Part shown: positions 30,338 through 60,033 of the stretch, piece by piece | How the letters are laid out: the number at the start of each line of letters is the position of its first letter | How positions within the stretch are numbered: position 1 is the first letter of the stretch | NCBI GenBank assembly: GCA_044226015.1 | Contig: JBGAHS010000004.1 | Location: 1 to 64,000 of the forward strand | Reading direction: 5' to 3' | From: Candidatus Obscuribacteraceae bacterium | Lineage (GTDB): Bacteria; Cyanobacteriota; Vampirovibrionia; Obscuribacterales; Obscuribacteraceae | Length of the DNA: 64,000 nt | Program-made: the position numbers and the translations under genes | The notes under the pieces: model-generated | What the model was told of the DNA's origin: nothing | Seen by the model: only the letters and a program-made list of their open reading frames with translations | Databases searched by the model: none

Positions 30338-30835
30338 ATGGGTTTGAGAATAGAAAATGGTGAAGCTGCAGGCTCAAAGACTTCGGCGCCTGGGGACCTT
30401 TCTCATGCATTAGTTTGTGATGCATATTCGCCTGAAGGTATATCGGGCGGCGGCAGACTTGAACTCAATCTCAGTGGACAAGCTGGAGCAGGTACAGGTG
30501 TTCAGTTGCCTGAGCTAGACCTTAGTGGTGACAAGCACGCGTTGCCGATTCCGAAGCCACTTGAGGAGACTAAAGCAAAAGATGAAGGGCTTGATCACAA
30601 GCCTATGTATAAATTGCCTCACTATCTCCTGAGCGATGAGCAAAAACATCGAATAGATACATACTTACGGCTAAACAAGCTGAATCAATATGGAGACCCA
30701 CTGGGAGCTACTTATCCTGCAGGAGATCCGATGATTGATGAGCGCACCGGTCAAAGAATGAATCGCTATGATTTTGTTCTTGCCAGAGTGAAAAAGCCTG
30801 GCTTGGACAGAGACAAATTGGTGAAGGCTGAATAG
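30338..30835 (+). CDS. hypothetical protein (N-terminal LPxLxL motif, small C-terminal domain LNQYGDP...DERTG)
   Basis: Open frame; likely ATG at 30338. Confidence 0.65.
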   Translation: MGLRIENGEAAGSKTSAPGDLSHALVCDAYSPEGISGGGRLELNLSGQAGAGTGVQLPELDLSGDKHALPIPKPLEETKAKDEGLDHKPMYKLPHYLLSDEQKHRIDTYLRLNKLNQYGDPLGATYPAGDPMIDERTGQRMNRYDFVLARVKKPGLDRDKLVKAE

Positions 30836-30948
30836 GTTTTGCCAGAGAAAGAACTGTCTCATAATTGAATTGCATTGCACACTGACAGCCTAAATTCTCA
30901 TCGTTTGTTGTTGAACTCTTATTCGCAACAAGAGAGAGAGGATGTTTT

Positions 30949-31809
30949 ATGAGCAAACGCAATCGAGGAAACATGTTGGTTCTCTCGGGTGTGCTAGTAA
31001 CTGTCAATGCGATTGGCTTATTGATCGCCAGTTCATTTGGAAGTCTTTATTTCGTGCATAATCGGCTTCAGTCAACTGCTGATGAGATTGCACTGGAAGG
31101 CGCAAGAAAGCTCAACGAACAAGACCAGCTTGGTCAGATGAACAATATGATCGCACGGTCACGGCAGCTTGTTTTTGATTCCGGAAAATCAATGGACGAT
31201 GCAAATGAGCACATGAGTCACTTGTCAGAGCTGGCAGAACAATTGCACGAGGAAGCTCGAGAGGGCGCCATGCTTATGGAAGCTGAAAGAGTAAAGCTGC
31301 GTACGATTAGCAAGAGCGAAGCGCAGGCTGCCATGCTTGATCGTTTCAATCAAATAAAAAATGGACATGCTCTGAATTTACCATGGCTGCAAGTGTCCGT
31401 TCCGGTGACACCTGTAATTACATTTGGAAAAGTCGATAAAGTTCAATCGAATGTACCGGAAATTGTGGGACTGGATGAACTCACAACAGAAGATCAGAGC
31501 AAGCAATATGTATCTAGCGATGGAAGCAAGTTGTACAAAGAAGGCATTAATGCTCACCTGCCAGGAAGTTCACATGATGGTGATCTGAATTTTTTCCTCT
31601 CCTCATTGCCTGCCCCGGTTTTGGACAGCGTTTCGCCAGCGCGCGCTGTCCTTGCCAGCAAGTTCAAGTCCAATTCTTCCGATCAACTCACTTCCGCTGT
31701 GCAAGTTGAACTTAAAGTAGGAGTTGATACCGGACTTGGTGCCTCTGCTCATAGTGATTTGAAAGCTTTGGGAACTGCAGAAGCTACCGGCGGACAAAAA
31801 ATGATGTAA
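30949..31809 (+). CDS. Tad domain (TadG-like) pseudopilin
   Basis: KRNRG|NMLVL followed by a TM helix and RLQSTADEIALEGA (Tad motif LQxAADxAALxGA). Confidence 0.78.
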   Translation: MSKRNRGNMLVLSGVLVTVNAIGLLIASSFGSLYFVHNRLQSTADEIALEGARKLNEQDQLGQMNNMIARSRQLVFDSGKSMDDANEHMSHLSELAEQLHEEAREGAMLMEAERVKLRTISKSEAQAAMLDRFNQIKNGHALNLPWLQVSVPVTPVITFGKVDKVQSNVPEIVGLDELTTEDQSKQYVSSDGSKLYKEGINAHLPGSSHDGDLNFFLSSLPAPVLDSVSPARAVLASKFKSNSSDQLTSAVQVELKVGVDTGLGASAHSDLKALGTAEATGGQKMM

Positions 31810-31821
31810 GAAATAAAAGTA

Positions 31822-31852
31822 AAAAAGTACTCTGCAAACGCGGAGTACTTTT
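31822..31852 (+). terminator. intrinsic terminator
   Basis: AAAAGTACTCTGC-aaac-GCGGAGTACTTTT. Confidence 0.65.
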
Positions 31853-32136
31853 CAGTGAAGTTTCGAGCTCGCAAATCATTTTTGATGCCAATGTAGAAGA
31901 CAAGATATATTGTCAATACTGTTTGGCAACCGCAGGGACAAGTTTGTTCTACACAAGATTTTCGCGTCTCGGCAGATTTAATTCTTACCGCAAAGCCAGT
32001 GCAAAGACTGATCTCTGAAAGCCTCTGTTTGCAGTGCATAACAGATTTCCATCTGCAGAGAAATGAAAGCTCGTGTCTTAGCTGACAATCATTCTCATTA
32101 TCTCAATACAAGGCAAACATTGTGTATATAAAGGAC

Positions 32137-32412
32137 TTATCCTTTAACGGCAGTCATTACAACCGGTTGGCGACCCTTTTGAACGTAGGCGCGAACCAAA
32201 TTTTTCACTTCGCAATTGCTGTTCGATAAATCAACAATGTACGGGAGAACCTCTGGATTGAACTCCACCTTGTCGTAAGGGGTGCCTGATTCATCAACGA
32301 ACTTGCCGCGGATCTCATAGTCGTTTTCGCACAGATGTTTCACCGTGGGGTTCACGAAATATCCAATCGTTTGACCCAACCCAGTACTTACTCTTGCTTT
32401 GACTTCACTCAT
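32137..32412 (-). CDS. small hypothetical protein
   Basis: 91-aa ORF with AAGGA RBS and globular composition; divergent from the ferredoxin gene. Confidence 0.7.
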   Translation of the reverse strand: MSEVKARVSTGLGQTIGYFVNPTVKHLCENDYEIRGKFVDESGTPYDKVEFNPEVLPYIVDLSNSNCEVKNLVRAYVQKGRQPVVMTAVKG

Positions 32413-32612
32413 GGTCTACATCATCCTTTTTGCAAATGGAAAGTATTCTTTCTCAATACCCATACGAAATTATCTCAGCATCCAAATTTCCGTCATTTGA
32501 TTCAAGAAATGTGTTAAGAAATAGGAGGTGCAAACCGGTCGTGAGGAAGTCTCACGATAGTGGTAAAAGACCTATACATCGTTACCAAACGAGAAAGAAA
32601 AGGAGACGGTAA

Positions 32613-32837
32613 ATGGCCTACACAATCGTTGCGGATGTTTGCGAAGGCATCGCAGATTGTATTCCAGTTTGTCCAGTTGAATGTATCCACTGGGCAGAAG
32701 GGAAGACAAACGTTAAGGGCACCAAGTACACCTACATCGATGATTCAACATGCATTGACTGTGGTGCTTGCTTGTCAGTATGCCCTATCGAAGGCGCCAT
32801 TCTTGACGAGTGGAAGCCAGAGCTGCAAAAGCCCTAG
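32613..32837 (+). CDS. di-cluster ferredoxin, probably 7Fe ([3Fe-4S][4Fe-4S])
   Basis: CEGIADCIPVCP (lacks the second Cys) and CIDCGACLSVCP; AGGAG RBS; resembles cyanobacterial bacterial-type ferredoxins. Confidence 0.92.
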   Translation: MAYTIVADVCEGIADCIPVCPVECIHWAEGKTNVKGTKYTYIDDSTCIDCGACLSVCPIEGAILDEWKPELQKP

Positions 32838-32857
32838 CCATTATAAGTCCCTATCGA

Positions 32858-32892
32858 AGATGGTGCCATCACATGTGGTGGCACCATTTTTC
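32858..32892 (+). terminator. intrinsic terminator after ferredoxin
   Basis: ATGGTGCCATCAC-at-GTGGTGGCACCAT-TTTT. Confidence 0.75.
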
Positions 32893-32988
32893 ATTGGGAT
32901 TTTAGCGCTTTTCCAGTAGTCGGCGGAATTTGCTTGTGCTTTTCATCTCAGGCAAGCTGAGCACAATATCCGTGAGCGCGCCGAAGAG

Positions 32989-33702
32989 CTACCCGATGGC
33001 AACTTTCCAGAATTGGTCGGCTTGAACTCTGATCTGTTCCATTCTCTTTTGAAGTTCGGCCTGCAGTTGTGTCATCTCCTCATCACTGGCACCTTTTGGC
33101 ACCCGCATGGGTTCACCGTATATGTATACGATAGGTGTTGACCACCATGGCGCCATAAAACGATCCCATGACTTCATCCACCATGTACTGCGCGCACTGC
33201 AGACAAACGGAACTATGGGTGCCTGGGTCATTTCTGCCATACGAATGACTCCAGGTTTTACTTCAAAGATAGGTCCACGCGGACCGTCTACCATGAAAAC
33301 CAGGTCCTGATTGTTCTTTACAGCATCCATTAGCTCAAGCCCGCCCTTGACGGCTCCCTGCTTCGATGAACCTCTGGCTATGCTGAAGCCCAGGCGAATG
33401 CCAGCACGAGCGATCATTTCGCCGTCACGGCTCGGACTCATCAAAATTGTTAAGCGCCGTCTTGGATGCAGCCCGAGTGCTCCGACCATGCGTCCGTGAT
33501 AGAAGGACCATATGACCGGCTTGCGGTTTTCGCCCTCTGCAAGTACCTCTTGAGCACCCGGTGCGTAAAATTTGATAATTCGATAACTTCGATCAAAAAA
33601 GCCAGTTCCGTCACTGCAGACGACTTCCAGAAAATTCATCCGAATTGTGTCCAGGATTGGAAAACGGCTGAGCAGCTCTCTGATTTTTATGCGTCGACTC
33701 AT
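32989..33702 (-). CDS. lysophospholipid acyltransferase family (DUF374) protein
   Basis: FYHGR, SPSRDGE, RGSS, VDGPRGP and SWDRF motifs. Confidence 0.88.
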   Translation of the reverse strand: MSRRIKIRELLSRFPILDTIRMNFLEVVCSDGTGFFDRSYRIIKFYAPGAQEVLAEGENRKPVIWSFYHGRMVGALGLHPRRRLTILMSPSRDGEMIARAGIRLGFSIARGSSKQGAVKGGLELMDAVKNNQDLVFMVDGPRGPIFEVKPGVIRMAEMTQAPIVPFVCSARSTWWMKSWDRFMAPWWSTPIVYIYGEPMRVPKGASDEEMTQLQAELQKRMEQIRVQADQFWKVAIG

Positions 33703-33844
33703 TGCTAAATTTCGATCCTGAACACACTTTTATGTTACATGACAATCCCCCATTCATTGCCAGTAGGGGCTATGTAGGGCATGGACATGATATTATTAAC
33801 CACTGCCTAAGAGTAAAACAAGATATCAAAGTGGAATTACAGGA

Positions 33845-34114
33845 ATGTCACTAGAAGCGAACAAGAAGCAAACAGTCATCGAAACACACAAGACACACGA
33901 CAAAGACACCGGTTCGCCGGAAGTTCAAGTCGCGATTTTGACTGAAAGAATCAATCAACTCACAGAACACCTTCGCTCACACTCAAAAGATTTTCACAGC
34001 AGACGCGGACTTTTGATGATGGTTGGAAAGAGAAGAAGACTTCTCCAATATCTGAGCAAGGAAGACCATAGTCGCTACAAAAACCTAATTGACAAGCTGG
34101 GATTGAGACGATAA
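33845..34114 (+). CDS. rpsO: 30S ribosomal protein S15
   Basis: [13 protein letters not shown]...[17 protein letters not shown]. Confidence 0.98.
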
Positions 34115-34121
34115 GTAATTG

Positions 34122-34156
34122 CAGGCGGGCAACCATCCCGCCTTCTTTTCTTTTTG
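34122..34156 (+). terminator. intrinsic terminator between rpsO and pnp
   Basis: AGGCGGG-caaccat-CCCGCCT followed by a T-rich tract. Confidence 0.7.
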
Positions 34157-34277
34157 GGGTCAAGAATCCAAGTCCTGTCATCCCAGTCAATTTTTTTCAA
34201 TTCCAGTTTATTTGCAGACCGCCTTGGGGGTCTGTTTTTCAGTATCAGGCTGTTTTTTTTATTAAGGTTCATAGAAG

Positions 34278-36431
34278 ATGTCAATAGAAATGCAAACAAA
34301 GACCCAATCCTTTTCAATAGAGATTGATGGCAAAACAGTAGAATTCACAACCGGAAGAATGGCAAAGCAAGCCAGCGGTGCAGTCGAAGTGAAGTGTGGA
34401 GACACAATGCTTCTCGTCACTTGCACAGCAGGTAAGACACCACGCGACGGTATCGATTACTTCCCACTGCTCGTAGACTTCGAAGAGAAGCTTTATGCAG
34501 TTGGCAGAATCCCGGGAAGTTTCACCCGGCGTGAAGGCAAGATGCCCGACAAAGCGATTCTCGTAAGCCGCTTAATCGACCGTCCGCTCCGCCCTCTTTT
34601 CAACTACAACTACAGAAACGATGTAATGGTAGTTGCAATTTGTATGAGTTCAGACCAGGTCAACCCACCAGACACCCTGGCTATGCTGGGTGCTTCGGTT
34701 GCAGTTGAACTCGCATCACTTCCTTTTAATGGCCCAATCGGTGCAGTAAGAGTGGGTCGCGTTGAAGGCAGATTCATCGCAAACCCAAGCTACGAACAAA
34801 TGGAAGCTTCCGATCTCGACCTCGTCGTTGCAGGCACCGAAAGCTCGATCATGATGGTTGAAGCCGGTTCGCAAATGGTCAGCGAGCGCGACATGCTCGC
34901 TGCTATCGATTATGCTCACAACGCAATCAAGCGTCAGTGCGAAGCTCAGAATGCTTTCATGAAGCAGTTGGGCATCGAGAAGTCCAACTTCGAAGGCGCT
35001 CCAAAGAATGAAGAATTGGACCGCATCATTCGCGAAAACACCACAGAAAAGTTGAAAGCTTCCATGGACGGTGTAACCGATAAAGCTGTCAGAAATGGTT
35101 TTATTGACGAAGCAAAAGCAGCTATTAATGAAGCGATTGCCGCGTTGCCAGAAGACCATCCACTGCGTAATGAAGCAAAATTGCCGATCGCAGCAATGCT
35201 TGAAGAGTACGAAGCAGAGTTGATGCGCGCTCAGGTTCTCGAAACCGGTAAGCGTGCTGACGGTCGTAGATGCGACGAAATTCGTCCGATTACTGTTGAA
35301 GTCGGCGTTGTTCCCCGCGCTCATGGCTCGGGTTTGTTTACACGTGGCACCACTCAGGTTCTCTCAGTTTGCACTTTGGGAACAGCAGGAGATGCGCAGA
35401 AGCTGGATTCAGTCGATCCACAAAAAGAACGTCGCTACCTGCACCACTACAATTTCCCGGGCTGGTCGGTAGGCGAAGTTAAGCCTAATCGTGGACCTGG
35501 CAGAAGAGAAATCGGACACGGCGCACTCGCTGAGCGCGCACTTACAGCGGCTCTTCCAAGCATGGATGAGTTCCCGTATGTAATTCGTGTTGTTTCAGAA
35601 GTACTCGAGTCAAATGGTTCTACTAGCATGGCGTCAACCTGCGGTTCGACCCTCGCTTTGCTCGACGCTGGCGTTCCACTCAAAGCACCAGTGGCAGGCA
35701 TCGCAATGGGCTTGATACTGGAAGGCGACCGCTTCGCGATTCTTTCGGACATTCAAGGTCTGGAAGATTTCCTCGGTGACATGGACTTCAAGGTCACCGG
35801 AACCCGCGATGGTATCACCGCCCTTCAGATGGACATCAAGATTGAAGGTATCTCTCTCGACATCATGAAGGTAGCGCTAGAACAGGCTCGCAAGGGACGC
35901 ATGCACATCCTCGATAAGATGGATGCAGTCATAGACCGTCCAAGAGCTGAGCTCTCCAAATGGGCTCCGAGAATCCTTACGATCCATATTGATCCAGATG
36001 ATATCGGAACCGTCATTGGACCAGGCGGTAAGATGATTCGTAAGATTATCGAAGAGACTGGTGCAACTATTGACATCGAAGATGATGGCACCGTTCGCAT
36101 CGCGTCAGTTGAAGCCGCTGGCGGCGAAGCTGCTCGCGACACAATTATCCGCATGTTGAAGAGAATCACTGTGGGTGAAGTTTATGCCGGACGCGTTACG
36201 CGCATCATTCCAGTCGGAGCTTTCGTTGAAGTTCTGCCAGGAAAAGAAGGCATGGTCCATATTTCGCAACTCGAAAACCGTCGCGTAGAGAAGGTTGAAG
36301 ACGTTGTGTCAGTTGGACAGAGAGTCATTGTAAAGGTCAAAGAAATTGACGACAGAAACAGAGTGAATCTGACGATGAAAGGCGTTAGCGCTGAAGAGCG
36401 GGCCGCTATTGAAGGCGTCAGCAAAAACTAA
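34278..36431 (+). CDS. pnp: polyribonucleotide nucleotidyltransferase
   Basis: Two RNase PH domains (SRLIDRPLRP, SNGSTSMAS, GDMDFKV), KH and S1 domains; follows rpsO. Confidence 0.98.
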   Translation: MSIEMQTKTQSFSIEIDGKTVEFTTGRMAKQASGAVEVKCGDTMLLVTCTAGKTPRDGIDYFPLLVDFEEKLYAVGRIPGSFTRREGKMPDKAILVSRLIDRPLRPLFNYNYRNDVMVVAICMSSDQVNPPDTLAMLGASVAVELASLPFNGPIGAVRVGRVEGRFIANPSYEQMEASDLDLVVAGTESSIMMVEAGSQMVSERDMLAAIDYAHNAIKRQCEAQNAFMKQLGIEKSNFEGAPKNEELDRIIRENTTEKLKASMDGVTDKAVRNGFIDEAKAAINEAIAALPEDHPLRNEAKLPIAAMLEEYEAELMRAQVLETGKRADGRRCDEIRPITVEVGVVPRAHGSGLFTRGTTQVLSVCTLGTAGDAQKLDSVDPQKERRYLHHYNFPGWSVGEVKPNRGPGRREIGHGALAERALTAALPSMDEFPYVIRVVSEVLESNGSTSMASTCGSTLALLDAGVPLKAPVAGIAMGLILEGDRFAILSDIQGLEDFLGDMDFKVTGTRDGITALQMDIKIEGISLDIMKVALEQARKGRMHILDKMDAVIDRPRAELSKWAPRILTIHIDPDDIGTVIGPGGKMIRKIIEETGATIDIEDDGTVRIASVEAAGGEAARDTIIRMLKRITVGEVYAGRVTRIIPVGAFVEVLPGKEGMVHISQLENRRVEKVEDVVSVGQRVIVKVKEIDDRNRVNLTMKGVSAEERAAIEGVSKN

Positions 36432-36455
36432 TCGCTCATTGATCTATCAATATTT

Positions 36456-36484
36456 AGAGGGCTCTTTCGAGAGCCCTCTTTTTC
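36456..36484 (+). terminator. intrinsic terminator after pnp
   Basis: AGAGGGCTCT-ttcg-AGAGCCCTCT-TTTT. Confidence 0.88.
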
Positions 36485-36663
36485 ATGCTTACTTAAATGA
36501 TCAGCTGTGCTTCCGCCATGAGAACGAGGGTGCTATCCATTTGGATATCTAAGCGATGAGTGATGGGATCCATCCTCCTCCAGACCAGCACCGGCTCTCC
36601 TTCCCAATGAAACGGGATTCTGCAGAAGAGCTAAAGGAAATGGTCTCGAGAGCAGAAATGAAA

Positions 36664-36689
36664 GAGGGGGAGAACTGCTTCTCCCCCTG
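36664..36689 (-). terminator. stem-loop downstream of the HU gene
   Basis: AGGGGGAGAA-ctgc-TTCTCCCCCT. Confidence 0.6.
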
Positions 36690-36719
36690 CTACTACTATT
36701 TTTCTTGGCCGACCATTGA

Positions 36720-36998
36720 CTATTTGACGCGGTCTTTGAATTCTTTTCCTGCCTTGAACGCCGGCACTCTTTGTGCGGGGACGTGAATCTTTGGTCCACC
36801 CGGGTTCTGAGGATTGTTGTTTTCTCTTGCCTGTCTGTTTCGTGGTTCAAACGCTCCGAAACCAACCAGTGTAACTCGCTCGCCAGCGGCAACTTTTTCG
36901 ACAATCACTTCGGTGAGCACACCGATCATTTCTTCTACCGACTTCTTTGTATTGTTTGTTCTAGCCGCAATTTCTGCAGCCAAATCTGCTTTGTTCAC
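36720..36998 (-). CDS. hup: DNA-binding protein HU
   Basis: GTG start after GGAGGAG; NKADL...VTLVGFGAF...VPAFKAGKEFKDRV. Confidence 0.93.
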   Translation of the reverse strand: MNKADLAAEIAARTNNTKKSVEEMIGVLTEVIVEKVAAGERVTLVGFGAFEPRNRQARENNNPQNPGGPKIHVPAQRVPAFKAGKEFKDRVK

Positions 36999-37378
36999 TG
37001 AGACTCCTCCACTCGGCATACGAGCTAATTCACGTAACCCGCAAGGATACAGCACTCTGGGGCACAGGACAAGCCCAGAACTGATAAATTTCGCCGCTTA
37101 ACAAGCCGCAAATCGGGGTGCTTGCAAAGTGATATTGGGCGGGTTGCTAAGCGGGTCCGGCATAAGTTTCAAAAAAATCTTTGCAAAGATAATTAGCTCG
37201 CATCGACATCTTTGCAACTGGCTCGATGCACCACCCCGTTTGAAAAGTGGCGTTCAAAAGCCCTATTATTTTGGGGGTAGATCGATGATTTTGAACTGCG
37301 TAAAATTACGATATTTTCCCCTTGGATCGTGTGAGATCCCGAATTTTTTTGGGAACAAATACAGAGTAGCGGATTAGA

Positions 37379-37783: not shown

Positions 37784-37842
37784 TAGAAACGGCCGACCAA
37801 GGAGACCAAAGGCAGTAATGCCTGTGTCATTAGGGGAACGAT

Positions 37843-48916: not shown

Positions 48917-50116
48917 ATGGGCAACGAAAATGTTCGTGATAATTCTGAAGCAGCTGTGCGTGATAAATCCAGAGAAGGGTCTGAAGAAAGACAAGCAACT
49001 GGTGCATTGCAAGAACAAGCAAATGATATTCGCAAAAACGAAAGACCTTCGGCAATAGCTGCTGACGAAAAATCTCTCGGCTTGCCAACGCTTTCTCTCG
49101 TTGACACCACCCCTGGTGCAAAAGACCTCTTCGACATGCATCAGGGCGCTGTTGATAAGAAAACTGCTGCTGAGCGAGTTGATGATGTCAGAAACGGTGG
49201 TCAGAAGATATTAGACCCCGACAAAACTTCTTCCAAGCATCTGACGGAAGCACAGGAAAAAGATGGACTCGTTCAATCAAAGGAAGGACCATATCAGGTA
49301 GCAGAACGTTTGTTGGGTAAGAGTGCATCACAAGAAGAGAAGATGGCGCTAGTGAAGGCTATGAGAAGCCAGTACAACGAGGAGACTGCTAACAAAGATC
49401 CCCATATGAAGAGCCTTTCTGTTGGTCGCAGCCTCCTGAACGAGCAGAACTATGACAAAGTCATTGCTAATATCAAGGACGAAGCTCTCCAGAAGAGCGT
49501 AGTTTCTAAGTTAGAGCAAAAGCAAAACAACGAGCCAAAGAAAGTTGAGCCTAAGCAAGATGACCAGAAAAAACTCGAACCTAAGGTTGAGCCAAAAGTA
49601 GAACCAAAAGTTGAGCCAAAGGTTGAGCCTAAAGTAGAACCTAAAAAAGAAGATCCAAAAGACTCCAAAGCTGAGCCTGGCAAGGATGCTCCAAAGCCTG
49701 AAAAGGCAGAACCGGTAGAGCAAAAGCTTGGGCCGTTAGGCTCGAAGTTTATTCCAGTTACAGAGAAGCAACCAGAAAAATCCACTATTGCTTCAGTTTA
49801 CAGCTCCGGTCATACGACGGCTTCTACCCGTCATTTCAATCCCAATGAGCCTACTGTCGCCATCAAACCAGAGGTTGCTAAAGCCATGGGGCTCCGTTTC
49901 GGAGACGTTATAAAAATAACGCGCGGGGAAAAGAGCACGGAAGCCGTGTACACCGATGCTGGTCCGTTCGTTAAGGGACGCGCAATTGACCTTTCTACAG
50001 CTGTAGGACGAAGACTCGGAATTACTTCTGATGGTATCGGAATCGCTCCCGTTAAGTTCGAGAAGATCGGAAGAGAGCCAGGTTTCATGGGGCACTCCAA
50101 AAGAAAACGCCACTAA
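48917..50116 (+). CDS. RlpA-like double-psi beta-barrel (lytic transglycosylase-like) protein with long N-terminal extension
   Basis: C-terminal ASVY...TDAGPFVKGRAIDLS; KVEP linker; no Sec signal; start after GGGAG. Confidence 0.8.
   Translation: MGNENVRDNSEAAVRDKSREGSEERQATGALQEQANDIRKNERPSAIAADEKSLGLPTLSLVDTTPGAKDLFDMHQGAVDKKTAAERVDDVRNGGQKILDPDKTSSKHLTEAQEKDGLVQSKEGPYQVAERLLGKSASQEEKMALVKAMRSQYNEETANKDPHMKSLSVGRSLLNEQNYDKVIANIKDEALQKSVVSKLEQKQNNEPKKVEPKQDDQKKLEPKVEPKVEPKVEPKVEPKVEPKKEDPKDSKAEPGKDAPKPEKAEPVEQKLGPLGSKFIPVTEKQPEKSTIASVYSSGHTTASTRHFNPNEPTVAIKPEVAKAMGLRFGDVIKITRGEKSTEAVYTDAGPFVKGRAIDLSTAVGRRLGITSDGIGIAPVKFEKIGREPGFMGHSKRKRH
49571..49642 (+). repeat. 12-bp coding tandem repeat (K[LV]EP x6)
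   Basis: KLEPKVEPKVEPKVEPKVEPKVEP with synonymous codon variation. Confidence 0.85.
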
Positions 50117-51421: not shown

Positions 51422-51525
51422 TCTCAGCTGGCTGCTGTTTCTATAACCGCTTTCACGATTTCACAATCAGCTAACGTTGTGCGTCTAAATTGTTTAGAAC
51501 AGGGCACCGGAATTTGAGGTGAGTG

Positions 51526-52299
51526 ATGAGCGCTAAATATAGAAATAGAAAGAAAGGCAGAAGAGTAAACGGCAGTGTTCTTTTTGAGTCTGCAGCCGGC
51601 ATGACCGTTATTAGTATTTTCTTGGTGCTTGTTTCTGCCTTTGCGGTTAACACTTTCAGCTATATGGTTTATGGAGCAAAGATTCAAGTCATTGCAAATG
51701 CAGTTGCGAAGCAGGTAAGCAATCGTACATTCTGGTTGGGTGCTCGTCGCCCGCTATTTCAGCGCACCGGCAGTGGTCTAGCAAAGACTAGAGAACTTGC
51801 AAATGACTATGCGAAAAGACTTGGTGAAATTTACGGTTTGCCAATTTCTCCTGTAGTCACTTTTCCTGATGCGCCTGATGAACAGGTTAACGGTGTTGCG
51901 TTTACTCCTGTTACCGTGTCAATGTCGCAGATTCCGCTGCCGTTTAAGTTTCGTTCTATCTTTCCTGAGTTCTTTAGTGTTTCAGCAGTTGGTATCGCAT
52001 CCGAACAAGTCGATGCCCCTCCGGCGTTCATTCGGCTTGGATTTAAGCTAATAGATCCTTCTGTATCTAATCCCTCCGTTACTAACAACACGCAGGTCGT
52101 TATGATTCCCGCCTATGGTTTTCAAACCGACTCAGGACTGACAAGCGCCAATCTCGGTGGCACTAGTAATAACAATGATGTGGTAGGTAATCAGCCAGAT
52201 CCTCGCTACTGTTTGTGGGCTGGGATAAATGGACAACTGCGCTCGAATGCGCCATACATTACGGGACCGAACGGAAAACAAATTCTTTCGTTCAATTGA
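51526..52299 (+). CDS. TadE-like pseudopilin with extra C-terminal domain
   Basis: RRVNG|SVLFE class III signal, then TM helix. Confidence 0.7.
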   Translation: MSAKYRNRKKGRRVNGSVLFESAAGMTVISIFLVLVSAFAVNTFSYMVYGAKIQVIANAVAKQVSNRTFWLGARRPLFQRTGSGLAKTRELANDYAKRLGEIYGLPISPVVTFPDAPDEQVNGVAFTPVTVSMSQIPLPFKFRSIFPEFFSVSAVGIASEQVDAPPAFIRLGFKLIDPSVSNPSVTNNTQVVMIPAYGFQTDSGLTSANLGGTSNNNDVVGNQPDPRYCLWAGINGQLRSNAPYITGPNGKQILSFN

Positions 52300-52380
52300 A
52301 ATGTCCCTGGTGTCCGCTTTTTCGAGAGGGGATCTCTGATTGATTCTCAAATGAGTCCCAGAAACAAATCAGCTTTATTC

Positions 52381-52411
52381 AAAGAGTCCACTCAGCTGGA
52401 CTCTTTTCTTT
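52381..52411 (+). terminator. intrinsic terminator between the paralogues
   Basis: AAAGAGTCCA-ctcagc-TGGACTCTTT-TCTTT. Confidence 0.7.
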
Positions 52412-52523
52412 GGAATCGTTCTTTCAGAAAGAGCAGCTTATGTCACAGATGGCTAACGTTTCTCTGTTAACTTATTAACACTGAAGGGAATCTGAGGTGA
52501 GACGAATGCGAAGCAAGGGAATC

Positions 52524-53282
52524 ATGAGAAAGAGCCGAAAAAACAATGGCGCTACTTTAGCTGGAGTTGCTGCTGTTTTGTCGGTTGCTAGCGTTCTGTT
52601 TTTGCTTGTAGCTGCCGTCTGTTTGAATGGATATGCCTTTTACGACTACACTGGAAAAGCTCAAGTCATAGCAGAAGAGGTCGCCAAACTTGTTGGACGA
52701 CGTAGCTATTTTCTTGGCGCTGCACGTCCGCAATTTCAGGCGGCAAACGCTGGTGAAAGCCAGAAACTGGCTCAAAGCTATGCAGAGCATTTAGCGGATG
52801 TACTTCACATTCCACACTCTGCCGGTATCAACATCAAGGTACTATCGAACGAATTGCAAGATTCAAATCTTTCGATGACCAAGGTCCAGGTGGAGTTGAG
52901 CAATGTTAGTTTACCCGCCGATATCGCTGGCGTGCTTCCGAAGATGGCCGATATTAAAGCTGTTGGCGTTGCATCAGGTGCGTCGGAGGCACCCCCAGCG
53001 TTTGTTCGTTTTGGTTTCAAACTAATCGACCCTTCACAATCGAATCCATCCGTTACCGATGCTACGCAGGTTGTGATGTTGCCTGCCTACGGTTTTCAAA
53101 CTGATTCCGGACTGAATTTTGCTAACCTGGGTGGAACAGCAAATAACAATGATGTTGCAGGCAATCAACCAGACCCAAGTGCTTGCTTATGGGCTGGTAT
53201 AAATGCCTCTCCAGATGCCCTGCGATCAAACGCTCCCTATGTTACAGGACCTGATGGTAAGCGCATAACAGCGTTCAACTAA
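52524..53282 (+). CDS. pseudopilin-like paralogue of the preceding gene
   Basis: RKNNG|ATLAG plus TM helix; C-terminal ~95 aa highly similar to 51526..52299; start could be 52497 or 52506. Confidence 0.7.
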   Translation: MRKSRKNNGATLAGVAAVLSVASVLFLLVAAVCLNGYAFYDYTGKAQVIAEEVAKLVGRRSYFLGAARPQFQAANAGESQKLAQSYAEHLADVLHIPHSAGINIKVLSNELQDSNLSMTKVQVELSNVSLPADIAGVLPKMADIKAVGVASGASEAPPAFVRFGFKLIDPSQSNPSVTDATQVVMLPAYGFQTDSGLNFANLGGTANNNDVAGNQPDPSACLWAGINASPDALRSNAPYVTGPDGKRITAFN

Positions 53283-53311
53283 ACAGTTTTTTCTGGCTCA
53301 TCCTGCAGGTA

Positions 53312-53983
53312 TCAGATCTTGATCTGGTACCCGTATCCCCTTACGTTTAGTATCTGAATTTTGGAGCCGATTGAGCTAAGTTTCTCCCTAAGGCTTGTAA
53401 GAAATACTCGGATGGTACCGCTGCTGATATCAACAGAATCGGGCCAGGCAGTCGCTCTCAGTTCTTCATGAGCAATTATTCGCTTTTGGTTTGAAAAAAG
53501 CAATGCCAATACATCGCATTCTCTTTTGCTCAGTTGAATTGAGTTTCCGTTGCATGAGACCTTACTGGATCCGCTAGACAATTCGAGGTCGCCACAGGAA
53601 ATTGATCCTGGCTCATCGATAGGAGCCCTACGCAAAACTGCTCGAATGAAACCATTGAGTTCTAAATGGTCAATTGGTTTTGTAAGGTAACGATCGGCTC
53701 CGCTGTCAAATCCTTTAACTTTGTCAGGAGAAGAGCTTCTTGCAGTTAGCATTATTACAGGAGTTGCGCCGCCCGATTGTCGGTATTTTTGCAAGAGTTC
53801 AGGACCTGTCATGCCAGGCATTTCCCAGTCGAAGATCAAAACATCATAGTCGTATGTCTTGATAAAGTCCCAGGCTTCTTCAGCCGTACTGCAGCAGTCA
53901 ACGCCATGACGTTCTTGCTGCAAAATATCTCTCACAAGCTCTCTTGTGTCTTTGTCATCGTCAACGATCAAAACTTTGGCCAT
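53312..53983 (-). CDS. OmpR-family response regulator
   Basis: VDDD, phospho-Asp DWEMP, YLTKP, winged helix ending VRGYGY. Confidence 0.93.
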   Translation of the reverse strand: MAKVLIVDDDKDTRELVRDILQQERHGVDCCSTAEEAWDFIKTYDYDVLIFDWEMPGMTGPELLQKYRQSGGATPVIMLTARSSSPDKVKGFDSGADRYLTKPIDHLELNGFIRAVLRRAPIDEPGSISCGDLELSSGSSKVSCNGNSIQLSKRECDVLALLFSNQKRIIAHEELRATAWPDSVDISSGTIRVFLTSLREKLSSIGSKIQILNVRGYGYQIKI

Positions 53984-53992
53984 ATCAATTAC

Positions 53993-55444
53993 TCAAAGGG
54001 CTTCTATCTCAGCTGCAGGTACTGTGAACCAGAATGTACTGCCTTGAGAATTACTATCGACTCCGATTTTACCACCGTGCAAATCAACGAGCATTTTTGC
54101 AATCGGTAAACCAAGACCTGTGCTGCCTTTCTTGGAGCGCTTATCGTCTGGAACCTGCTCGTATGGAAGAAATATGACTTCTCTGAAATTCTCTGGAACG
54201 CCAGGTCCATGGTCCTGAATTCTTACTTTCAGAAAGGATTCTTCTCTCTCGTAGTCTATTTCTATAGCTGTATCTTTGCCAGTGAACTTAATTGCATTGC
54301 CGAGCAAATTGATGATTACTTGTGCTAGTCTTTCGGGATCAGCAACAATCATTTCATTGCAGCTCTCTGCCTTTAACTGCACACTCTTTGCTTTTGCGAT
54401 CGGCTCAAGTTCGTTGATACAGTCTTCAACCACATCATCGATTCTCACAGATGACAGAGTAAGTTTCAACTTTCCGGATTTCAGTTTTTCCAGATCAAGG
54501 ATGTCGTTCACGAGACCTGTTAGTCGTTTTACGACCCGGACTGAGCTCTCCAGTCTATATTCCTGATCATCATTCAGCTCCCCGTAAACACCCGAGCAGA
54601 GCGCGCCCAGTGCTAAATTTAGAGCTGCTAGTGGATTACGAAGGTCGTGGGTCACCATCGCCACAAGCTGTTCTTTTCGTGCTTCAATTTCTCGTAGCTC
54701 ATTTGTCATTTTATGAAAGAATCTGTCGAGTGCTGCCAACTCGTCTTTTCCTTCAAGCGGAGGATTGAGCTTTTCTCCAGACGGTAGTTTGTTTGTATTA
54801 TCGATAATTACGTTGAAACGTTTTGCGAAATCCCTGGCGAACAAAAGCAAGAGTCCTGCGCTCATCAACATGTTGATCAAAAAACCGCCGATAACTGCTG
54901 ACAGGAACAATGTTCTTCCTTGTTTGATGCTCTTGCTTTCGTCGTAACTGGTTCGAGTTCGTTGAGAAAGAATCGATTCAATATCGCTAAGCAGCTCTCC
55001 TACGTCACTCTGAATTTCAAGCGCCTTAAGCTGTTTGCTTCCAATTGAAGAGGCGTCGAGATCCATACTCTGTCTGACTTCTATAAGTTCTCCCAGAACC
55101 TTTTTCAAACTTCGTGAAGTCTTTTTTGCGCTTGCTCCTTCCACATTGTTTTGTGTGGCAAGCAAGTTCATTACCTCAGTTTTTCTCTCAAGCTTTTCGT
55201 AAACACTATCGAATCCCTTTAGAAATGTCTTGTCTCGTGAATAAGCGAAAGCTGAAATCATTCCGATTGCTCGATAACAAAGCGTGGAAGTCGTCATCAG
55301 ATCTGTAGTCTGATTGCGATATTGGAGGTCTCTAAAGTTGATCTGTTCCACTGTTCTAAAGGCGCCCAGAAGTACCAGTACAAATATGAACTGCGCCAAG
55401 ATTGGCGTAGCAAGAAGCAAAATTACCCGTTGAATAAAGGTCAT
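53993..55444 (-). CDS. sensor histidine kinase (two TM, HAMP, HisKA, HATPase)
   Basis: THDLRNPL, NLLGNAIKF, DHGPG and GLGLPI motifs. Confidence 0.93.
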   Translation of the reverse strand: MTFIQRVILLLATPILAQFIFVLVLLGAFRTVEQINFRDLQYRNQTTDLMTTSTLCYRAIGMISAFAYSRDKTFLKGFDSVYEKLERKTEVMNLLATQNNVEGASAKKTSRSLKKVLGELIEVRQSMDLDASSIGSKQLKALEIQSDVGELLSDIESILSQRTRTSYDESKSIKQGRTLFLSAVIGGFLINMLMSAGLLLLFARDFAKRFNVIIDNTNKLPSGEKLNPPLEGKDELAALDRFFHKMTNELREIEARKEQLVAMVTHDLRNPLAALNLALGALCSGVYGELNDDQEYRLESSVRVVKRLTGLVNDILDLEKLKSGKLKLTLSSVRIDDVVEDCINELEPIAKAKSVQLKAESCNEMIVADPERLAQVIINLLGNAIKFTGKDTAIEIDYEREESFLKVRIQDHGPGVPENFREVIFLPYEQVPDDKRSKKGSTGLGLPIAKMLVDLHGGKIGVDSNSQGSTFWFTVPAAEIEAL

Positions 55445-55561
55445 GTCTGCGGCTGATAAATGCAAAATTCACACGTTCTTAGTTAACTTTGCCCTGTTTT
55501 TGACACTCTAAATCGAGAATTAGTAAGCGTTTGTGGAAAGGAACTAAGAGGAGGAGCGAAC

Positions 55562-57673
55562 ATCAAGTCTATTAACGATGCCAGCCTCGAACAAAGAAAC
55601 ACTCTGCTTTGCCTCTTCGCTTTGCAGGTAGTTCTTAGTATTGGTCTGATTGCGTTGGCGAACTCGGCCTGGTTTTCGAAATACTATAACCTCAGAATGC
55701 GCGAAAATTGTATGGCGGGCTATCTAAATTCAAATGAGCGGGATCCGTCCCTGCTTTTAGATGCACTCAGGTACAGCTCTGCATCCGGCGAGTCGAACAG
55801 TGCAAACTTGACCGTATTGGAAGAACTGGCTATTTCGAGTGCAAGTAAAAATCTGCGTATGTCTGATTCCGCGCTTGCAAAGATTCGGATTCTTTCAAAT
55901 TCCAAAAGTGATTCTGCTGAAATCGCTCAGAAAAAGGAAGCTCGAATAAGACTGCATCGAGCTCTGGCATTCTTACAGCGGGAGGAAATTGACAGTGCCC
56001 AGAAGGAACTCAATTCTGTATTGTCGATTTTGCAGGGGCTGCCTGAGAAAAGCAAGAAGATTTTTCTAATTGCGCAGTACTTTTCCTGCGCAAGTACCTG
56101 TGCTCGGGCACGTGGAGATAGAGGTGCAGCTGCAGCATTTAGTTCCGCTCGAGATGGGCTCAAAGATCCAGTTCTGGCAAAACAGATTTATCTCAAATAT
56201 AAATTGCCTGGTTTTGAATCTGACTTCTCTGCCGATTATCGCGCACTATTTTATTTGGCGAAGTACCGGAGAAGCTCCAAGCAGAGTGAAAGGCAAATCG
56301 CTCTAACTCAAATGCGTCCTTATCTGACTGATGATGGGCTCAGCAAGTCTAGCAAAGCTGCTCTTTTGTTAGAGTTGGCATATCATGCAGCGAATACGCA
56401 AGATCTTGCTCTGGAAAACTTGCTATTGGCAGAATGGTTAAAGCTAAAGAGTCCATCGGCTCAGGCAAGTTTAGAAGAAATTGTAAGTCTCTCGCCCTTG
56501 CTTGATATAGCTGCAAGCACAGGCAATAGTGCTGCAGGTATTGATCTCTTAGAGCACTACGTTGAAGCTGTTGAATTGAAGAAGATAAGACCTGAAGCGT
56601 GGTCGGTATGGTTTGAAAATTTGGACGTATTTTGTTTGCAGGTTAAATTATTTCCGATTCCAGAAGCTTATCGAGAGCGAATTGATCGGATTTGCCAGAG
56701 GGTTCAAGCAATCGCTTTTTCCGATGGAAAGTCTTGTGCGTCAATCGAACTCATCAGGCTAGGACTTTTGGAAGATAAGGAAAAATTTGCTGATGCCGAA
56801 AAAGAATTCCTGCAGAAGGTGCTTGTGGATCGGCAATTTGAACGGTTGATGCCTGCTCCCGCACGATTTCTGATTTTCACTTCGTTGATTGATAGACTTT
56901 CAGTTGGTTTGCAAAGGAACTTCGGACCTGAAAGCCGGCGCCGATTTATTTCAGCTGTGCTCGCAAGCAATAAGCTGTCTAAGGAGGTTAAAGCAAACAC
57001 TGCAGTTTTAGCTGCAAAAATGGAGCACGATTATGATGCCAAATCTACGAGCAGAACTAATGAAATACTGCTTAAATATGCTAATGATCCAAGCTTGAAG
57101 CAACAACATTATGAGCTTGAGGACACGCTGTTGCGCTTTTATTGTTGGGCTGGAGATCTATCACACGGTGCCGAATTTTATTCTCGCATGAAATCTGAGT
57201 TGAAAGCAGAACCTGCGTTGCTGGTTTCACACTGTCATTCTGCGCTTAGCTGGTTGCGAGCGTTTCCATCGTACAAACCAGATTGGCACCAGGTTTGTGT
57301 CGAAAAGAAATTTCCCGATGCGATTTTTCGGGATGGATTTCAGCTTATAAAATATTTGAAAAACGATAAACAGCGTGTTGAATACACCTTATGGTTTGCC
57401 CAATATGAACTTTGTAGAGGAGACAAAGATGGCTGCATCAAGCTCTGCGATAGTATTCTGATGAACAGTGAGAACACTAAGTACAGCGTGTATTTCCCCG
57501 CAAAAATTCTGCGAGAACAGTTAGCTGGCAACAACAATCTGCCGCAAGGAAAGATCTCGTGTGTTAAAGGTACGAGGGATGAGCTGGCATGTCTCTGGTC
57601 TTTGCTATTCACTGCTGGATATAAATTGGAATCTGATCGAGTGAAGAATCTGACTGAGCGAATCGCAGAGTAG
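55562..57673 (+). CDS. membrane-anchored helical-repeat hypothetical protein
   Basis: Long ORF (track start TTG 55622); frame open upstream to an ATC at 55562 that follows GGAGG. Confidence 0.65.
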   Translation: MKSINDASLEQRNTLLCLFALQVVLSIGLIALANSAWFSKYYNLRMRENCMAGYLNSNERDPSLLLDALRYSSASGESNSANLTVLEELAISSASKNLRMSDSALAKIRILSNSKSDSAEIAQKKEARIRLHRALAFLQREEIDSAQKELNSVLSILQGLPEKSKKIFLIAQYFSCASTCARARGDRGAAAAFSSARDGLKDPVLAKQIYLKYKLPGFESDFSADYRALFYLAKYRRSSKQSERQIALTQMRPYLTDDGLSKSSKAALLLELAYHAANTQDLALENLLLAEWLKLKSPSAQASLEEIVSLSPLLDIAASTGNSAAGIDLLEHYVEAVELKKIRPEAWSVWFENLDVFCLQVKLFPIPEAYRERIDRICQRVQAIAFSDGKSCASIELIRLGLLEDKEKFADAEKEFLQKVLVDRQFERLMPAPARFLIFTSLIDRLSVGLQRNFGPESRRRFISAVLASNKLSKEVKANTAVLAAKMEHDYDAKSTSRTNEILLKYANDPSLKQQHYELEDTLLRFYCWAGDLSHGAEFYSRMKSELKAEPALLVSHCHSALSWLRAFPSYKPDWHQVCVEKKFPDAIFRDGFQLIKYLKNDKQRVEYTLWFAQYELCRGDKDGCIKLCDSILMNSENTKYSVYFPAKILREQLAGNNNLPQGKISCVKGTRDELACLWSLLFTAGYKLESDRVKNLTERIAE

Positions 57674-57674
57674 C

Positions 57675-58703
57675 CTATTTCTTCTCAAACTTCGCCTTTG
57701 AACCTAGATATTTCTCGGCTTCGCCAGAATCTAACCATCGCCAGGAAGCCTCGTCGTTCTTGAGGGCTGCATCAAGGAAATGTAGCGTAATTACCTGTAT
57801 CATTTCTTGGTAATTGGCATCTGTTTCTTTTCCTGGACGGAAACTTCGTCCTCCAAATGTCGCATGGTCAGCTCCTATGAAATTTGCAAGATATTGATGT
57901 GGTGCAGATATGTTGTCGAACGGAATTCGCCGCTCACTGGCAGAGGTATTGCCGATTGGTGAGTTATCCTCAGTTCCAGTCAATAATAGACCTGGAATCT
58001 TGATTGTGCCGTAAACCTTTTGGGCGCCGTTGCCTTTTCCGGCTCCGGTGACGGGAGGGCACAAATACACTGCAGCGCTCACTCTCTTATCCGCTAGTGT
58101 GGCATCAGACCATCCTCCTCCCTGTCCGGCGATTGCCAGCGCAGTTCCAGCACCAAAGGAGTGTCCGCCAATAGCAATCTTCGCCAGATTTAACTGTCCC
58201 TTGAAGGGAGGTGTATTGCTATTTTTCTGAAGTTCATTTAGCACAAAAGTTATGTCCCCAGCTCGATCAATCCAGTTCTTTCCATTGGCTGCTGCCTGCA
58301 TTTTCGAAAAAAACGAGGCGCGATCAACCGTGTTGCCTGACTTCCAAACACCACTGTCGCTTCCCGGGTGCTGCACGAAGACGCAGAAGTAACCCTTGCT
58401 GGAAAGATAAGTTCCTAGATATTCGGCGGCTTCCCTCGAGCCACCGAGTCCATGAGAGAAAATAAAAATTGGAAATGGACCTGTGCCCTGCGGCAAATAC
58501 AGTTTTATTGGTATTGTTCTGTGCCGCTGTTCATCTGTCCATTCGAGATATTGTTGATTAGCCGTGTTGCTAGGCGCTTTGTTGAACCGTGCCTGAATTC
58601 TCTCACGCATTGTGGGCTCTTTCTCTGGAGTCGCTCCGATCGCACTCAAGGGTGTCAGCAGAATTAAAGACATCAAAAGTCCGGCAAGAAAAGGTTTGCG
58701 CAT
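57675..58703 (-). CDS. secreted alpha/beta hydrolase (PAF-acetylhydrolase/dienelactone hydrolase-like)
   Basis: Signal peptide; FSHGLGGS, QHPGSD, GHSFG and ADH motifs. Confidence 0.88.
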   Translation of the reverse strand: MRKPFLAGLLMSLILLTPLSAIGATPEKEPTMRERIQARFNKAPSNTANQQYLEWTDEQRHRTIPIKLYLPQGTGPFPIFIFSHGLGGSREAAEYLGTYLSSKGYFCVFVQHPGSDSGVWKSGNTVDRASFFSKMQAAANGKNWIDRAGDITFVLNELQKNSNTPPFKGQLNLAKIAIGGHSFGAGTALAIAGQGGGWSDATLADKRVSAAVYLCPPVTGAGKGNGAQKVYGTIKIPGLLLTGTEDNSPIGNTSASERRIPFDNISAPHQYLANFIGADHATFGGRSFRPGKETDANYQEMIQVITLHFLDAALKNDEASWRWLDSGEAEKYLGSKAKFEKK

Positions 58704-58779
58704 TGTGTTTTTCCAAAAACCGACTTATTAGATTACACCGAGACTTGGAAAAAGTTGCGCCAAAGAATAATTAACTCGT

Positions 58780-60033
58780 TTATGACCCGTGCAGTCTCCG
58801 GTAAGCTGCCGTTCCTTTGACATTGGCCGCCGGAATGTAATTGTCTTTAGACCACCCTGCAACGAATCCATCTTTGGGTCCCATCATGGAAAGGAGAACT
58901 TTTGGAGTTACGGGCTTGAAGTGGCTGCTATTTGCTTTATCAGGGTCACCAATTATGTATTTACCGTCTGAAGTTTTTCCAGCAATGAAGATGTAATGCC
59001 CATTTCCAGTGTGCGGATTTTTTACGTGCCCGATAGCGGAGTGTCCCATAGCGAGTTCTTTGTCCAGATCTTTGAGTGTCTGTTCATCGACTTTCTTGTA
59101 GGAATATGCTTTTGCATTTAGCCCCAGTGTCTCAACTTTGTCCGCCATTGATTGCAGATCGCCTCTGTAGCCACGCCCTATCGTACCAGCCAGTTGTTTG
59201 AAGGACTGAGCTTGTTTTCCATAGTCTACCGGACGACCAGAAAACTGGTCGCTATATAGCATTGCAATTGAAAACGCTGAGCAAGATACTCCATCATCTT
59301 GCGCTTTGTAGAATACTTTTAGATCCTCAATTGACCTGGTTACGTTTAACTTCTTGTCTTGCGGAATGTTGAACCCCGGAAGCTTATCTTGTTGTTTGCT
59401 ATCTGTGCGAATATCGAGGAATGGAATTGTCTGATTTTGCTCTGTTTTTTTATCGTCGTTTCTTATTTCTAAGTATGGAAGTAGTGGTGAGGGGTGCTTT
59501 TGTTTTGCATCTGATGACTTTGCATCAGCCTGTTTTATATCTGCGGGCTTCGGGTCTGCTGGCTTTGTTTCAGAGGATTTTGAATCGGCCTGTCGGGCGT
59601 CTGATGAACCGCTATCGAGCTTTTTCTTTTCTGCATTTCTTGTATCAGCTGCGATTTTCGCGTCAGGTGTCTCTGCCGATTTGTTTTCATTCTTCTTGAT
59701 TCCCTCTCTAATCCACGACGGAACCTCTGCCGTAAGATTCTCGCTTTCATGCTTAGCCGAGGTGAAAGGACTTTTAGAGCTGGCAGGGTCTGCGTCGATA
59801 GACCATGGATTCTTTCGTCCAAATGGACTGTTGCGTGCCGACCCCATGTCTATCTGTAACTGAGGCAGATACGGCTGCTGACTTTGTGATTCTCTTGTAG
59901 TTTGGGAAAAATCAAGGCTGGGCGCATTGATAGAATCTCGCAAAAATCGAGATGCATCAAATTTGATTTCTTGATTCGATGGTGCTTGCGAATCAGTATC
60001 GCGATGGCTGGCACCCTGAGCCAGTTCTGACAT
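58780..60033 (-). CDS. C39-like (papain-fold) peptidase domain protein with disordered N-terminus
   Basis: Q-x5-C (QDDGVSC), GHYIFIAG and IIGDP; likely start MSELAQ; no Sec signal. Confidence 0.8.
   Translation of the reverse strand: MSELAQGASHRDTDSQAPSNQEIKFDASRFLRDSINAPSLDFSQTTRESQSQQPYLPQLQIDMGSARNSPFGRKNPWSIDADPASSKSPFTSAKHESENLTAEVPSWIREGIKKNENKSAETPDAKIAADTRNAEKKKLDSGSSDARQADSKSSETKPADPKPADIKQADAKSSDAKQKHPSPLLPYLEIRNDDKKTEQNQTIPFLDIRTDSKQQDKLPGFNIPQDKKLNVTRSIEDLKVFYKAQDDGVSCSAFSIAMLYSDQFSGRPVDYGKQAQSFKQLAGTIGRGYRGDLQSMADKVETLGLNAKAYSYKKVDEQTLKDLDKELAMGHSAIGHVKNPHTGNGHYIFIAGKTSDGKYIIGDPDKANSSHFKPVTPKVLLSMMGPKDGFVAGWSKDNYIPAANVKGTAAYRRLHGS

Follow-up and report, generated by a model that had tools for sequence, protein, structure and literature searches.

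An N-terminal LPxLx[LI] leader on signal-peptide-free proteins of the Obscuribacteraceae: a candidate Sec-independent export signal

The Obscuribacterales are widespread, uncultured, non-photosynthetic relatives of the cyanobacteria with large, orphan-rich genomes. The stretch of DNA analysed here (the window) consists of the first 64,000 nucleotides of contig JBGAHS010000004.1 from a Candidatus Obscuribacteraceae bacterium (GCA_044226015.1). Within it three unrelated proteins that lack a signal peptide, an RlpA-like protein, a C39-like cysteine peptidase and an orphan, carry the short motif LPxLx[LI] at almost the same distance from their starts. A preliminary description of this DNA took the coincidence for a lineage-specific N-terminal targeting signal of a non-Sec route. 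The locus raises the question of whether the motif belongs to a shared leader and, if so, which machinery would read it.

The source genome (G000; window G000:C7:1-64000) comprises 8.19 Mb with 47% GC and is 92% complete. Its 5,469 genes, 57 of them in the window, were called with an in-house dicodon model; the most upstream ATG or alternative ATG was taken as the start, a choice that can be wrong. For comparison, 27 Obscuribacterales genomes (the order set) and 13 other genomes (the outside set) were used. The leader-bearing family is the Obscuribacteraceae (f1).

A leader shared by signal-peptide-free proteins

About 60–80 signal-peptide-free proteins of G000 share a leader with LPxLx[LI] at around residue 55. 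Translation reproduces the three sites in the window, at residues 57, 56 and 56, together with the two later copies reported for the C39-like protein, which has a third beside them (Table 1). Three matches within a single 2-residue bin of a 57-gene window correspond to P~2e-5. Over the whole genome LP.L.[LIV] is most frequent at residues 51–60, with 21 matches against 5–11 in the adjacent bins, and residues 45–70 contain 33 matches where 16.6 are expected (P=2.5e-4). Among the 469 proteins selected by a hydrophilic acidic start alone the motif is found in 16, against 1.4 after shuffling (maximum 4 in 100), in line with the earlier proposal of a genuine shared motif. The remaining 4,902 proteins show no excess (25 against 21.8 expected), nor do four permuted control patterns. 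When 57,475 patterns were ranked without supervision, LP.L and LP...I were the top two.

A working set of 78 proteins was assembled from those scoring at least 12 bits, minus five removed by eye, plus 22 lower scorers added by eye and the window genes; 55 of the 78 reach 12 bits. With a position-aware leader model 61 proteins score at least 11 bits against three shuffled decoys, training members being counted in. Free iteration of a hidden Markov model without composition correction drifted to low-complexity proteins and was dropped. The leader begins with an acidic, disordered stretch of about 20–25 amino acids (aa), followed by an [LF]xx[ED][AVSLT] segment, a linker and the core LPxLx[LI]xD. 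The core lies at a median residue of 55, and between residues 45 and 70 in 71 of the 78, in proteins of 73–7,753 aa, and residues 2–45 are net negative in 90% of the set. The upstream segment, a pattern picked by eye, occurs at residues 14–44 in 36 of 86 leaders against 13 shuffled (maximum 24 in 500); a Gibbs search for it was marginal (8.2 against 7.5–7.8 shuffled), and it is the regular-expression test that supports the segment. Outside the core the mean column identity is 15–16%. A classifier using residues 2–45 alone returns 267 genes at 0.9 or above, of which about 40 are expected to be false and which are mixed with other disordered starts, and because of this the wider leader class may number 100–200. 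Four open reading frames (ORFs) of 62–74 aa consist of the leader only (L073, L074, L156 and L164) and are candidate remnants or seeds of leader shuffling.

The preliminary description had cautioned that the match in position depends on the choice of start codon. Independently called homologues of the window enzymes start with MSEL or MGNE and have the motif at residues 56–57 in five of eight cases, LGKLSI at 56 being counted within the five; in two others it lies at 59 (from the second methionine) and at 77. An in-frame stop is found within 15 codons upstream of the chosen start in 40 of the 78 genes, and among the 20 that have an upstream start, a single one would gain a hydrophobic stretch from it. 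By a hydropathy rule a signal-like start is present in one of the 78 proteins against 30% genome-wide, which agrees with the reported lack of a Sec/Tat-type signal, and 77 of the 78 have no predicted membrane segment.

Profiles built from 58 and 77 leaders were used in six-frame searches that carried no position information. Leader-profile matches in family genomes were 17/24 (E<=1), 58/80 (E<=0.3) and 11/23 (E<=0.05), and in the last of these searches none of 97 other genomes of the class was matched. At loci outside G000 and outside the training set, the core lies 48–69 residues after the ORF-start methionine in 18/28, 18/18 and 6/7 cases (42/53 in all); most of the misses are weak matches that fall within TolC, ABC or kinase genes, and some of the relatives' matches are mutual orthologues. 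Orthologues hold the core and its position while the flanks diverge. Within the family the distribution is patchy. A search of 1.84 billion representatives, a library for which the information in the profile is too low, returned one repetitive unrelated protein, and an ESM Atlas search with the leader gave no usable match. What stands of the targeting signal first proposed is thus a family-restricted, position-fixed tag on signal-peptide-free, effector-like proteins; membership of type III secretion, with which the motif had been compared, is not supported (see below).

Cargo, secretion machinery and candidate routes

A Pfam match (E<=0.01) was obtained for 34 of the 78 proteins, the scan of two giants being limited to the first 5,000 aa. 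Eight proteins have domains that bind or hydrolyse peptidoglycan (amidase_3, glucosaminidase, YkuD, LysM and DPBB, several below curated cut-offs), 11 are protease or transglutaminase-like, three ChaN/HopBA1-like, three RHS and two nuclease/phosphoesterase. The relatives' leader proteins add annexin, GH5 and EF-hand domains, and 28 of 34 have no Pfam match. G000 also encodes paralogues of the M28 and calpain domains that do carry ordinary signal peptides. Four leader-bearing giants (L064, L071, L018 and L022; 3,076–7,753 aa) contain RHS, FHA, LysM and phosphatase-like domains.

Two further features accompany the leader. The first is a basic C-terminus, measured independently of member selection: the last 10 residues have a net charge of +1.21 in members against +0.38 in 2,867 soluble non-members (P=1.8e-6), and of +1.52 in 23 complete members from relatives (P=2e-3 against the G000 reference). 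A net charge of at least +2 in these residues is found in 45% of members against 25%, and is absent from some members. The second is a DNA element, TTCACG-N2-WTTTTCAC, found upstream of 16 of the 78 leader genes (leave-one-out) against 59 of all 5,469 genes, often 55–100 nucleotides upstream of the start, with an A/T-rich -10-like box after it. It also precedes other leader-like or secreted genes, and is a candidate mark of a regulon; in relatives it was found in only 2 of 36 cases. Most leader genes are monocistronic.

By whatever route, the leader is quite probably an export signal. Type IV secretion is the route indicated by the chromosomal VirB4 clusters, the additional coupling ATPases and the basic C-tails. 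Cluster A (C10) encodes VirB4, VirD4 and Replic_Relax together with a VirB3-like and a small membrane protein, and a multi-pass VirB6-like protein lies close by. In cluster B (C1) the second VirB4 is accompanied by one VirB8-like protein and two of VirB6-like type, all among TadE/G-like genes. The VirB3, VirB6 and VirB8 labels follow from size, topology and position only. VirB4 is present in all 27 order genomes, mostly as two paralogues, with orthologues 72–93% identical, and has no strong match in the 13 outside genomes (two weak ones). The order VirB3-like/VirB4/small membrane protein/VirD4 is retained in the relatives' loci, and the clusters are vertically inherited.

G000 has four coupling ATPases in all. 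Beyond the VirD4 of cluster A there are three paralogous coupling-protein-like ATPases (L092:5647-12970, that is G000:C3:263646-270969, and G000:C9:476985-481109), each with N-terminal Cys pairs, a long disordered region, membrane segments and a periplasmic domain, and with no relaxase among the neighbours inspected. This family occurs in 24 of the 27 order genomes, with more copies in several large ones, and in none of the 13 others. A predicted model (predicted local distance difference test, pLDDT, 85) matches Cag-beta, the Legionella type IV coupling complex (T4CC) and TrwB, and also DndH and HerA; a PDB sequence search with the ATPase gave no significant match. Five VirB10/TrbI-like proteins (G000:C9:73102-74073, C10:34332-35309, C1:1274326-1275018, C1:210363-211355 and C10:323183-324433) have signal-like starts and glycine-zipper tails, and one lies about 25 kb from VirB4-B, as in several relatives. 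An apparent adjacency of VirB10-like and leader genes (2/5 in G000, 0/27 in relatives) was rejected.

These genes suggest that the leader and the basic tail form a bipartite signal that routes substrates to the chromosomal type IV secretion system (T4SS) of the order, a reading to which somewhat less than an even chance is given. The alternating LxLxI residues would form a β-strand that binds a coupling ATPase or an adaptor, the acidic disordered start would keep this core exposed, the basic tail would help entry, and the unfolded substrate would be threaded through a VirB4/VirB6-like channel. Once delivered, the cell-wall hydrolases, proteases, nucleases and RHS giants of the cargo would act in or on neighbouring cells, in competition, predation or host manipulation. 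New substrates would arise by joining a promoter-plus-leader module to new domains; the leader-only ORFs and the common upstream element suggest such a birth by module fusion, and an analogous origin, terminal reassortment, has been proposed for type III effectors. It is possible, if doubtful, that the Obscuribacteraceae are unrecognised predators or cell-manipulating symbionts whose domesticated type IV system, reading an N-terminal translocation signal of a new class, would inject 100–200 proteins per genome, some of more than 7,000 residues, a 60-residue leader sufficing to address any protein.

Several observations weigh against type IV routing. Type IV signals are usually C-terminal, according to the passages of PMC10025392 drawn on. 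VirB4-B of G000 is split by two consecutive in-frame stops (L088:15272-17977; G000:C1:183271-185976), being either a pseudogene or an assembly error, while relatives have open frames of about 900–970 aa. The VirB10-like matches are weak, dispersed, below the Pfam cut-off and also found in 9 of the 13 outside genomes. Cluster A contains a Replic_Relax relaxase-like gene and may therefore move DNA. No leader gene was found near 11 VirB4, 5 coupling-ATPase or 27 VirB10-like loci, the T4SS genes lack a clear TTCACG-N2-WTTTTCAC element, and no promoter link to T4SS or Tad genes was found. Three candidates have housekeeping-type domains (PfkB, thioredoxin and DJ-1). A close same-strand downstream gene with a signal-like start follows only 6 of the 78, and classical effector–immunity pairs are therefore rare. 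By profile there is no leader in G001, G011 or G025-G027; none was found in 619 ORFs of G001 (800 kb, 19% of its genome) or in 302 ORFs of G021 (400 kb), against 14 in 1,636 ORFs of G000. These small-genome, leader-free relatives retain VirB4, the coupling ATPase and Tad.

Alternatively, the motif could be where a partner docks, whether a protein of the target cell, a scaffold at the cell pole, a chaperone or an AAA+ protease, with export, if any, decided elsewhere. Extra copies occur beyond residue 110 (18 against 9.4 expected), some of them C-terminal (L109 and L116), and more than 100 leader-like proteins have no LPxL core, as a docking site would allow. This explanation is nevertheless unlikely, since the core keeps its distance from the start in proteins of 73 to 7,753 aa and there is cargo able to act only outside the cytoplasm.

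The absence of the leader from the G001 and G021 samples, where the T4SS and Tad genes stay, would also fit an unrecognised, patchy translocon or vesicle route that reads the leader and was lost with it in small genomes. Eight leader genes lie in G000-only gaps of synteny with G001, and about 87% of the proteome falls outside the family-library scans. Since the P-loop ATPase loci inspected showed no cluster of this kind and the basic C-tail fits type IV, this route is rather unlikely.

The Tad or type IV pilus apparatus, suggested in the preliminary description, would be a third reader of the leader, delivering on contact as in Myxococcus Kil. G000 has genes for type IV pili as well as two Tad operons, an RcpA-type secretin and numerous genes of TadE/G-like type, a few of these components being interspersed with T4SS cluster B, and Tad CpaB occurs in all 27 order genomes in up to four copies. 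It is also found in 5 of the 13 outside genomes, where the leader was not found. Tad is not known to us as a route for substrates from the cytoplasm. In Myxococcus, Tad pili mediate killing on contact, as passages of PMC12075869 and PMC8460266 describe. The Kil system, however, works with a needleless type III apparatus whose FlhA/SctV marker was not found here, and a Tad route is judged improbable.

It is very improbable that the leader has little function of its own and is shared by descent as part of a shuffled promoter-plus-5'-end module. The leader-only ORFs and the upstream DNA element would be expected of such a module, yet the element replicates weakly in relatives, and in diverged orthologues the core and its position are kept while the rest of the leader diverges, a sign that the peptide is under selection. 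Reading by a type I (ABC-HlyD-TolC) exporter, in the way that peptide exporters recognise leaders at the N-terminus, is scarcely credible and was disfavoured for want of co-variation with the leader: two HlyB/HlyD/TolC-like operons are present in G000 and missing in G001, and EF-hand and calpain cargo is on its side, yet the adaptor went undetected in G007, G010, G015, G020 and G023, all leader-positive, is present in leader-negative G011 and G021 and in 6 of the 13 outside genomes, and the leader has no double-glycine end.

Other known machines were searched for. The motif had been likened to the chaperone-binding β-motif of the type III secretion system (T3SS). FlhA/SctV was not found in G000 or in any of the 27 order genomes and is present in all 13 other genomes, and membership of a T3SS is therefore unsupported. 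The CesT chaperone profile matched none of 41 genomes, its control likewise matching nowhere; the YbjN chaperone was not found in G000 with a working control. TssC of the type VI system and tail-sheath genes (controls positive) and an EccC-type FtsK (control working) were likewise not found in G000. No XVIPCD domain was matched by Pfam in the 78 G000 proteins or in 34 proteins of relatives.

Leader proteins of the window and their surroundings

The features of the window are collected in Table 1. In the RlpA-like protein the motif is retained by the orthologues P0008-P0010; its TIGR00413 match is below cut-off. The label of the C39-like protein rests on a precomputed PF13529 match, without detection in the Pfam scans of this analysis, and a PDB sequence search with the domain gave no significant match; a putative Cys251-His346-Asp363 triad was assigned by eye. 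At the core position its homologues read LPKLQI, LPPLQI, FPDTSI and LGKLSI. Both homologues of the borderline orphan (30338) have the acidic leader and the upstream element without a canonical LPxL. The gene at 12441, which the preliminary description found similar at its N-terminus, does have the upstream helical element (APDLSLSLWQD, residues 20–30) and lacks the LPxL core; it is at most a member of the wider class.

Table 1. Leader-related features in the window (positions in nucleotides).
Feature	Position	Strand	Basis
RlpA-like (DPBB) protein, 399 aa, full leader, no signal peptide	48917..50116	+	model score 24.0
Upstream helical element ATGALQEQAN, residues 27-36, RlpA-like protein	48995..49024	+	element enriched across leader class
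Core LPTLSL, residue 56, RlpA-like protein (ATG 48917)	49082..49099	+	translation
DPBB_1 lytic-transglycosylase-like cargo domain	49787..50056	+	Pfam PF03330, E 1.3e-6
Basic C-terminal tail (…SKRKRH), candidate second half of signal	50093..50113	+	sequence; class-wide basic enrichment
C39-like cysteine peptidase, 417 aa, full leader	58780..60033	-	model score 21.0
Core LPQLQI, residue 56, C39-like protein (ATG 60033)	59851..59868	-	translation
Internal motif-like copies LPYLEI (185), IPFLDI (203), LPGFNI (218), C39-like protein	59365..59481	-	translation
Upstream DNA element, TTCACG-N2-WTTTTCAC type, 128 nucleotides 5' of C39-like start	60144..60161	-	13.0 bits
Orphan, 165 aa, borderline member	30338..30835	+	model score 10.2; leader-classifier 0.33
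Core LPELDL, residue 57, orphan 30338	30506-30523	+	translation from ATG 30338
Disordered orphan, 218 aa, acidic start, no LPxL core	11785..12441	-	leader-classifier 0.84
Upstream element of orphan 12441	12352-12384	-	translation

An Ivy lysozyme-inhibitor gene (61371-62066, +) lies 1.3 kb from the C39-like gene and may serve self-protection against cell-wall hydrolases. The gene at 8169-10496 (+) encodes a 775-aa double-LysM protein with an Ala-rich start and no signal peptide, present in 18 of 21 order genomes and in none of 9 others; its LPTPTF at residue 54 is not kept in 13 orthologues, and it was rejected as a leader member. TadE/TadG-like pseudopilin genes are scattered through the window (29526-30182, 30949-31809 and 51523-53282, +), and a loose pattern finds 164 such starts in G000. 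A 293-aa protein (16599-17480, -) has the N-terminal and anticodon-binding domains of Arginyl-tRNA synthetase with no catalytic core detected, and a Pro-rich 607-aa protein with a C-terminal Roadblock/LC7 domain (660-2483, +) is encoded beside an M17 peptidase and a DUF4388 protein. An Rfam scan of the window gave no match. Elsewhere on the contig, the trp operon (G000:C7:760630-766934) is missing from the syntenic place in the sample of the small-genome relative G001, which hints at a more dependent lifestyle there.

Comparison with known systems

The family-restricted leader is real and is likely to represent a new variant of Sec-independent export signal. Such a tag would allow the direct listing of hundreds of candidate antibacterial or host-directed enzymes and would predict a predatory or parasitic side to Obscuribacterales life; it is also short enough for peptide and reporter-fusion tests. 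If the route is type IV, where substrate recognition mostly relies on the C-terminal end, the tag would be a family-wide addition at the N-terminus. No description of Obscuribacterales secretion, Melainabacteria signals or an LPxL secretion motif was found in the open-access literature; the passages of PMC4040986 drawn on do not contain the word 'secretion'. The comparisons below likewise draw on passages of the papers cited.

The leader resembles the T3SS signal and chaperone-binding domain in its polar disordered start and in a hydrophobic alternating segment 50–100 residues in (PMC10025392). It differs in that FlhA/SctV was not found in any of the 27 order genomes, nor was a class I chaperone found, bearing in mind the silent CesT control. 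By analogy it may work like a T3SS signal without being a member of that class.

As in the Xanthomonas XVIPCD system, one tag is placed on many unrelated hydrolases, cell-wall enzymes included, and the coupling protein is the likely receptor (PMC8740702). XVIPCD, however, is a folded C-terminal domain of about 120 aa on effectors with immunity genes (PMC8740702), whereas the leader is N-terminal and mostly disordered, and immunity-like neighbours are rare.

The machinery itself is reminiscent of the Patescibacteria T4SS: there too a chromosomal VirB4 cluster is inherited vertically, has monoderm-type (CD1110/CD1115-like) proteins as its best matches and is proposed to have been co-opted for roles other than conjugation (PMC12102498, PMC12857230); the likeness is one of best matches, not of a tree. 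The Obscuribacterales differ in that the host is diderm, VirB4 has two paralogues, the extra coupling ATPases carry a periplasmic domain and one cluster includes Replic_Relax. Within the same class, delivery of hydrolases to prey through a T4SS has been proposed for Vampirovibrio chlorellavorus, with no signal described in the passages drawn on (PMC4451040). Its T4SS, in contrast, is plasmid-linked with a T-type VirB4 (PMC4451040). The Obscuribacterales-type VirB4 was not found in the two genomes of family f3 or in most other orders, and the leader was not found outside family f1.

The closest parallel to the proposed type IV routing lies in the bipartite type IV signals. Basic C-tails and combined N- and C-terminal signals are known from VirB/D4, Bartonella and CagA systems, the named cases being the BID domain with a basic tail in Bartonella, the N-terminal 20 aa with the C-terminus in H. 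pylori CagA, and the Arg tail of Agrobacterium VirF (PMC10025392). An N-terminal Dot/Icm signal in an artificial substrate (PMC10100965) provides precedent for N-terminal reading by a type IV system. The Obscuribacteraceae proteins share with these the lack of a Sec signal, the basic tail, a separate second element and the presence of VirB4/VirD4. They differ in that the leader is short, N-terminal, fixed in position and carried by dozens of unrelated proteins, rather than being a folded BID domain or a feature of a single effector, and in that the machine which may read it is diverged, dispersed and chromosomal.

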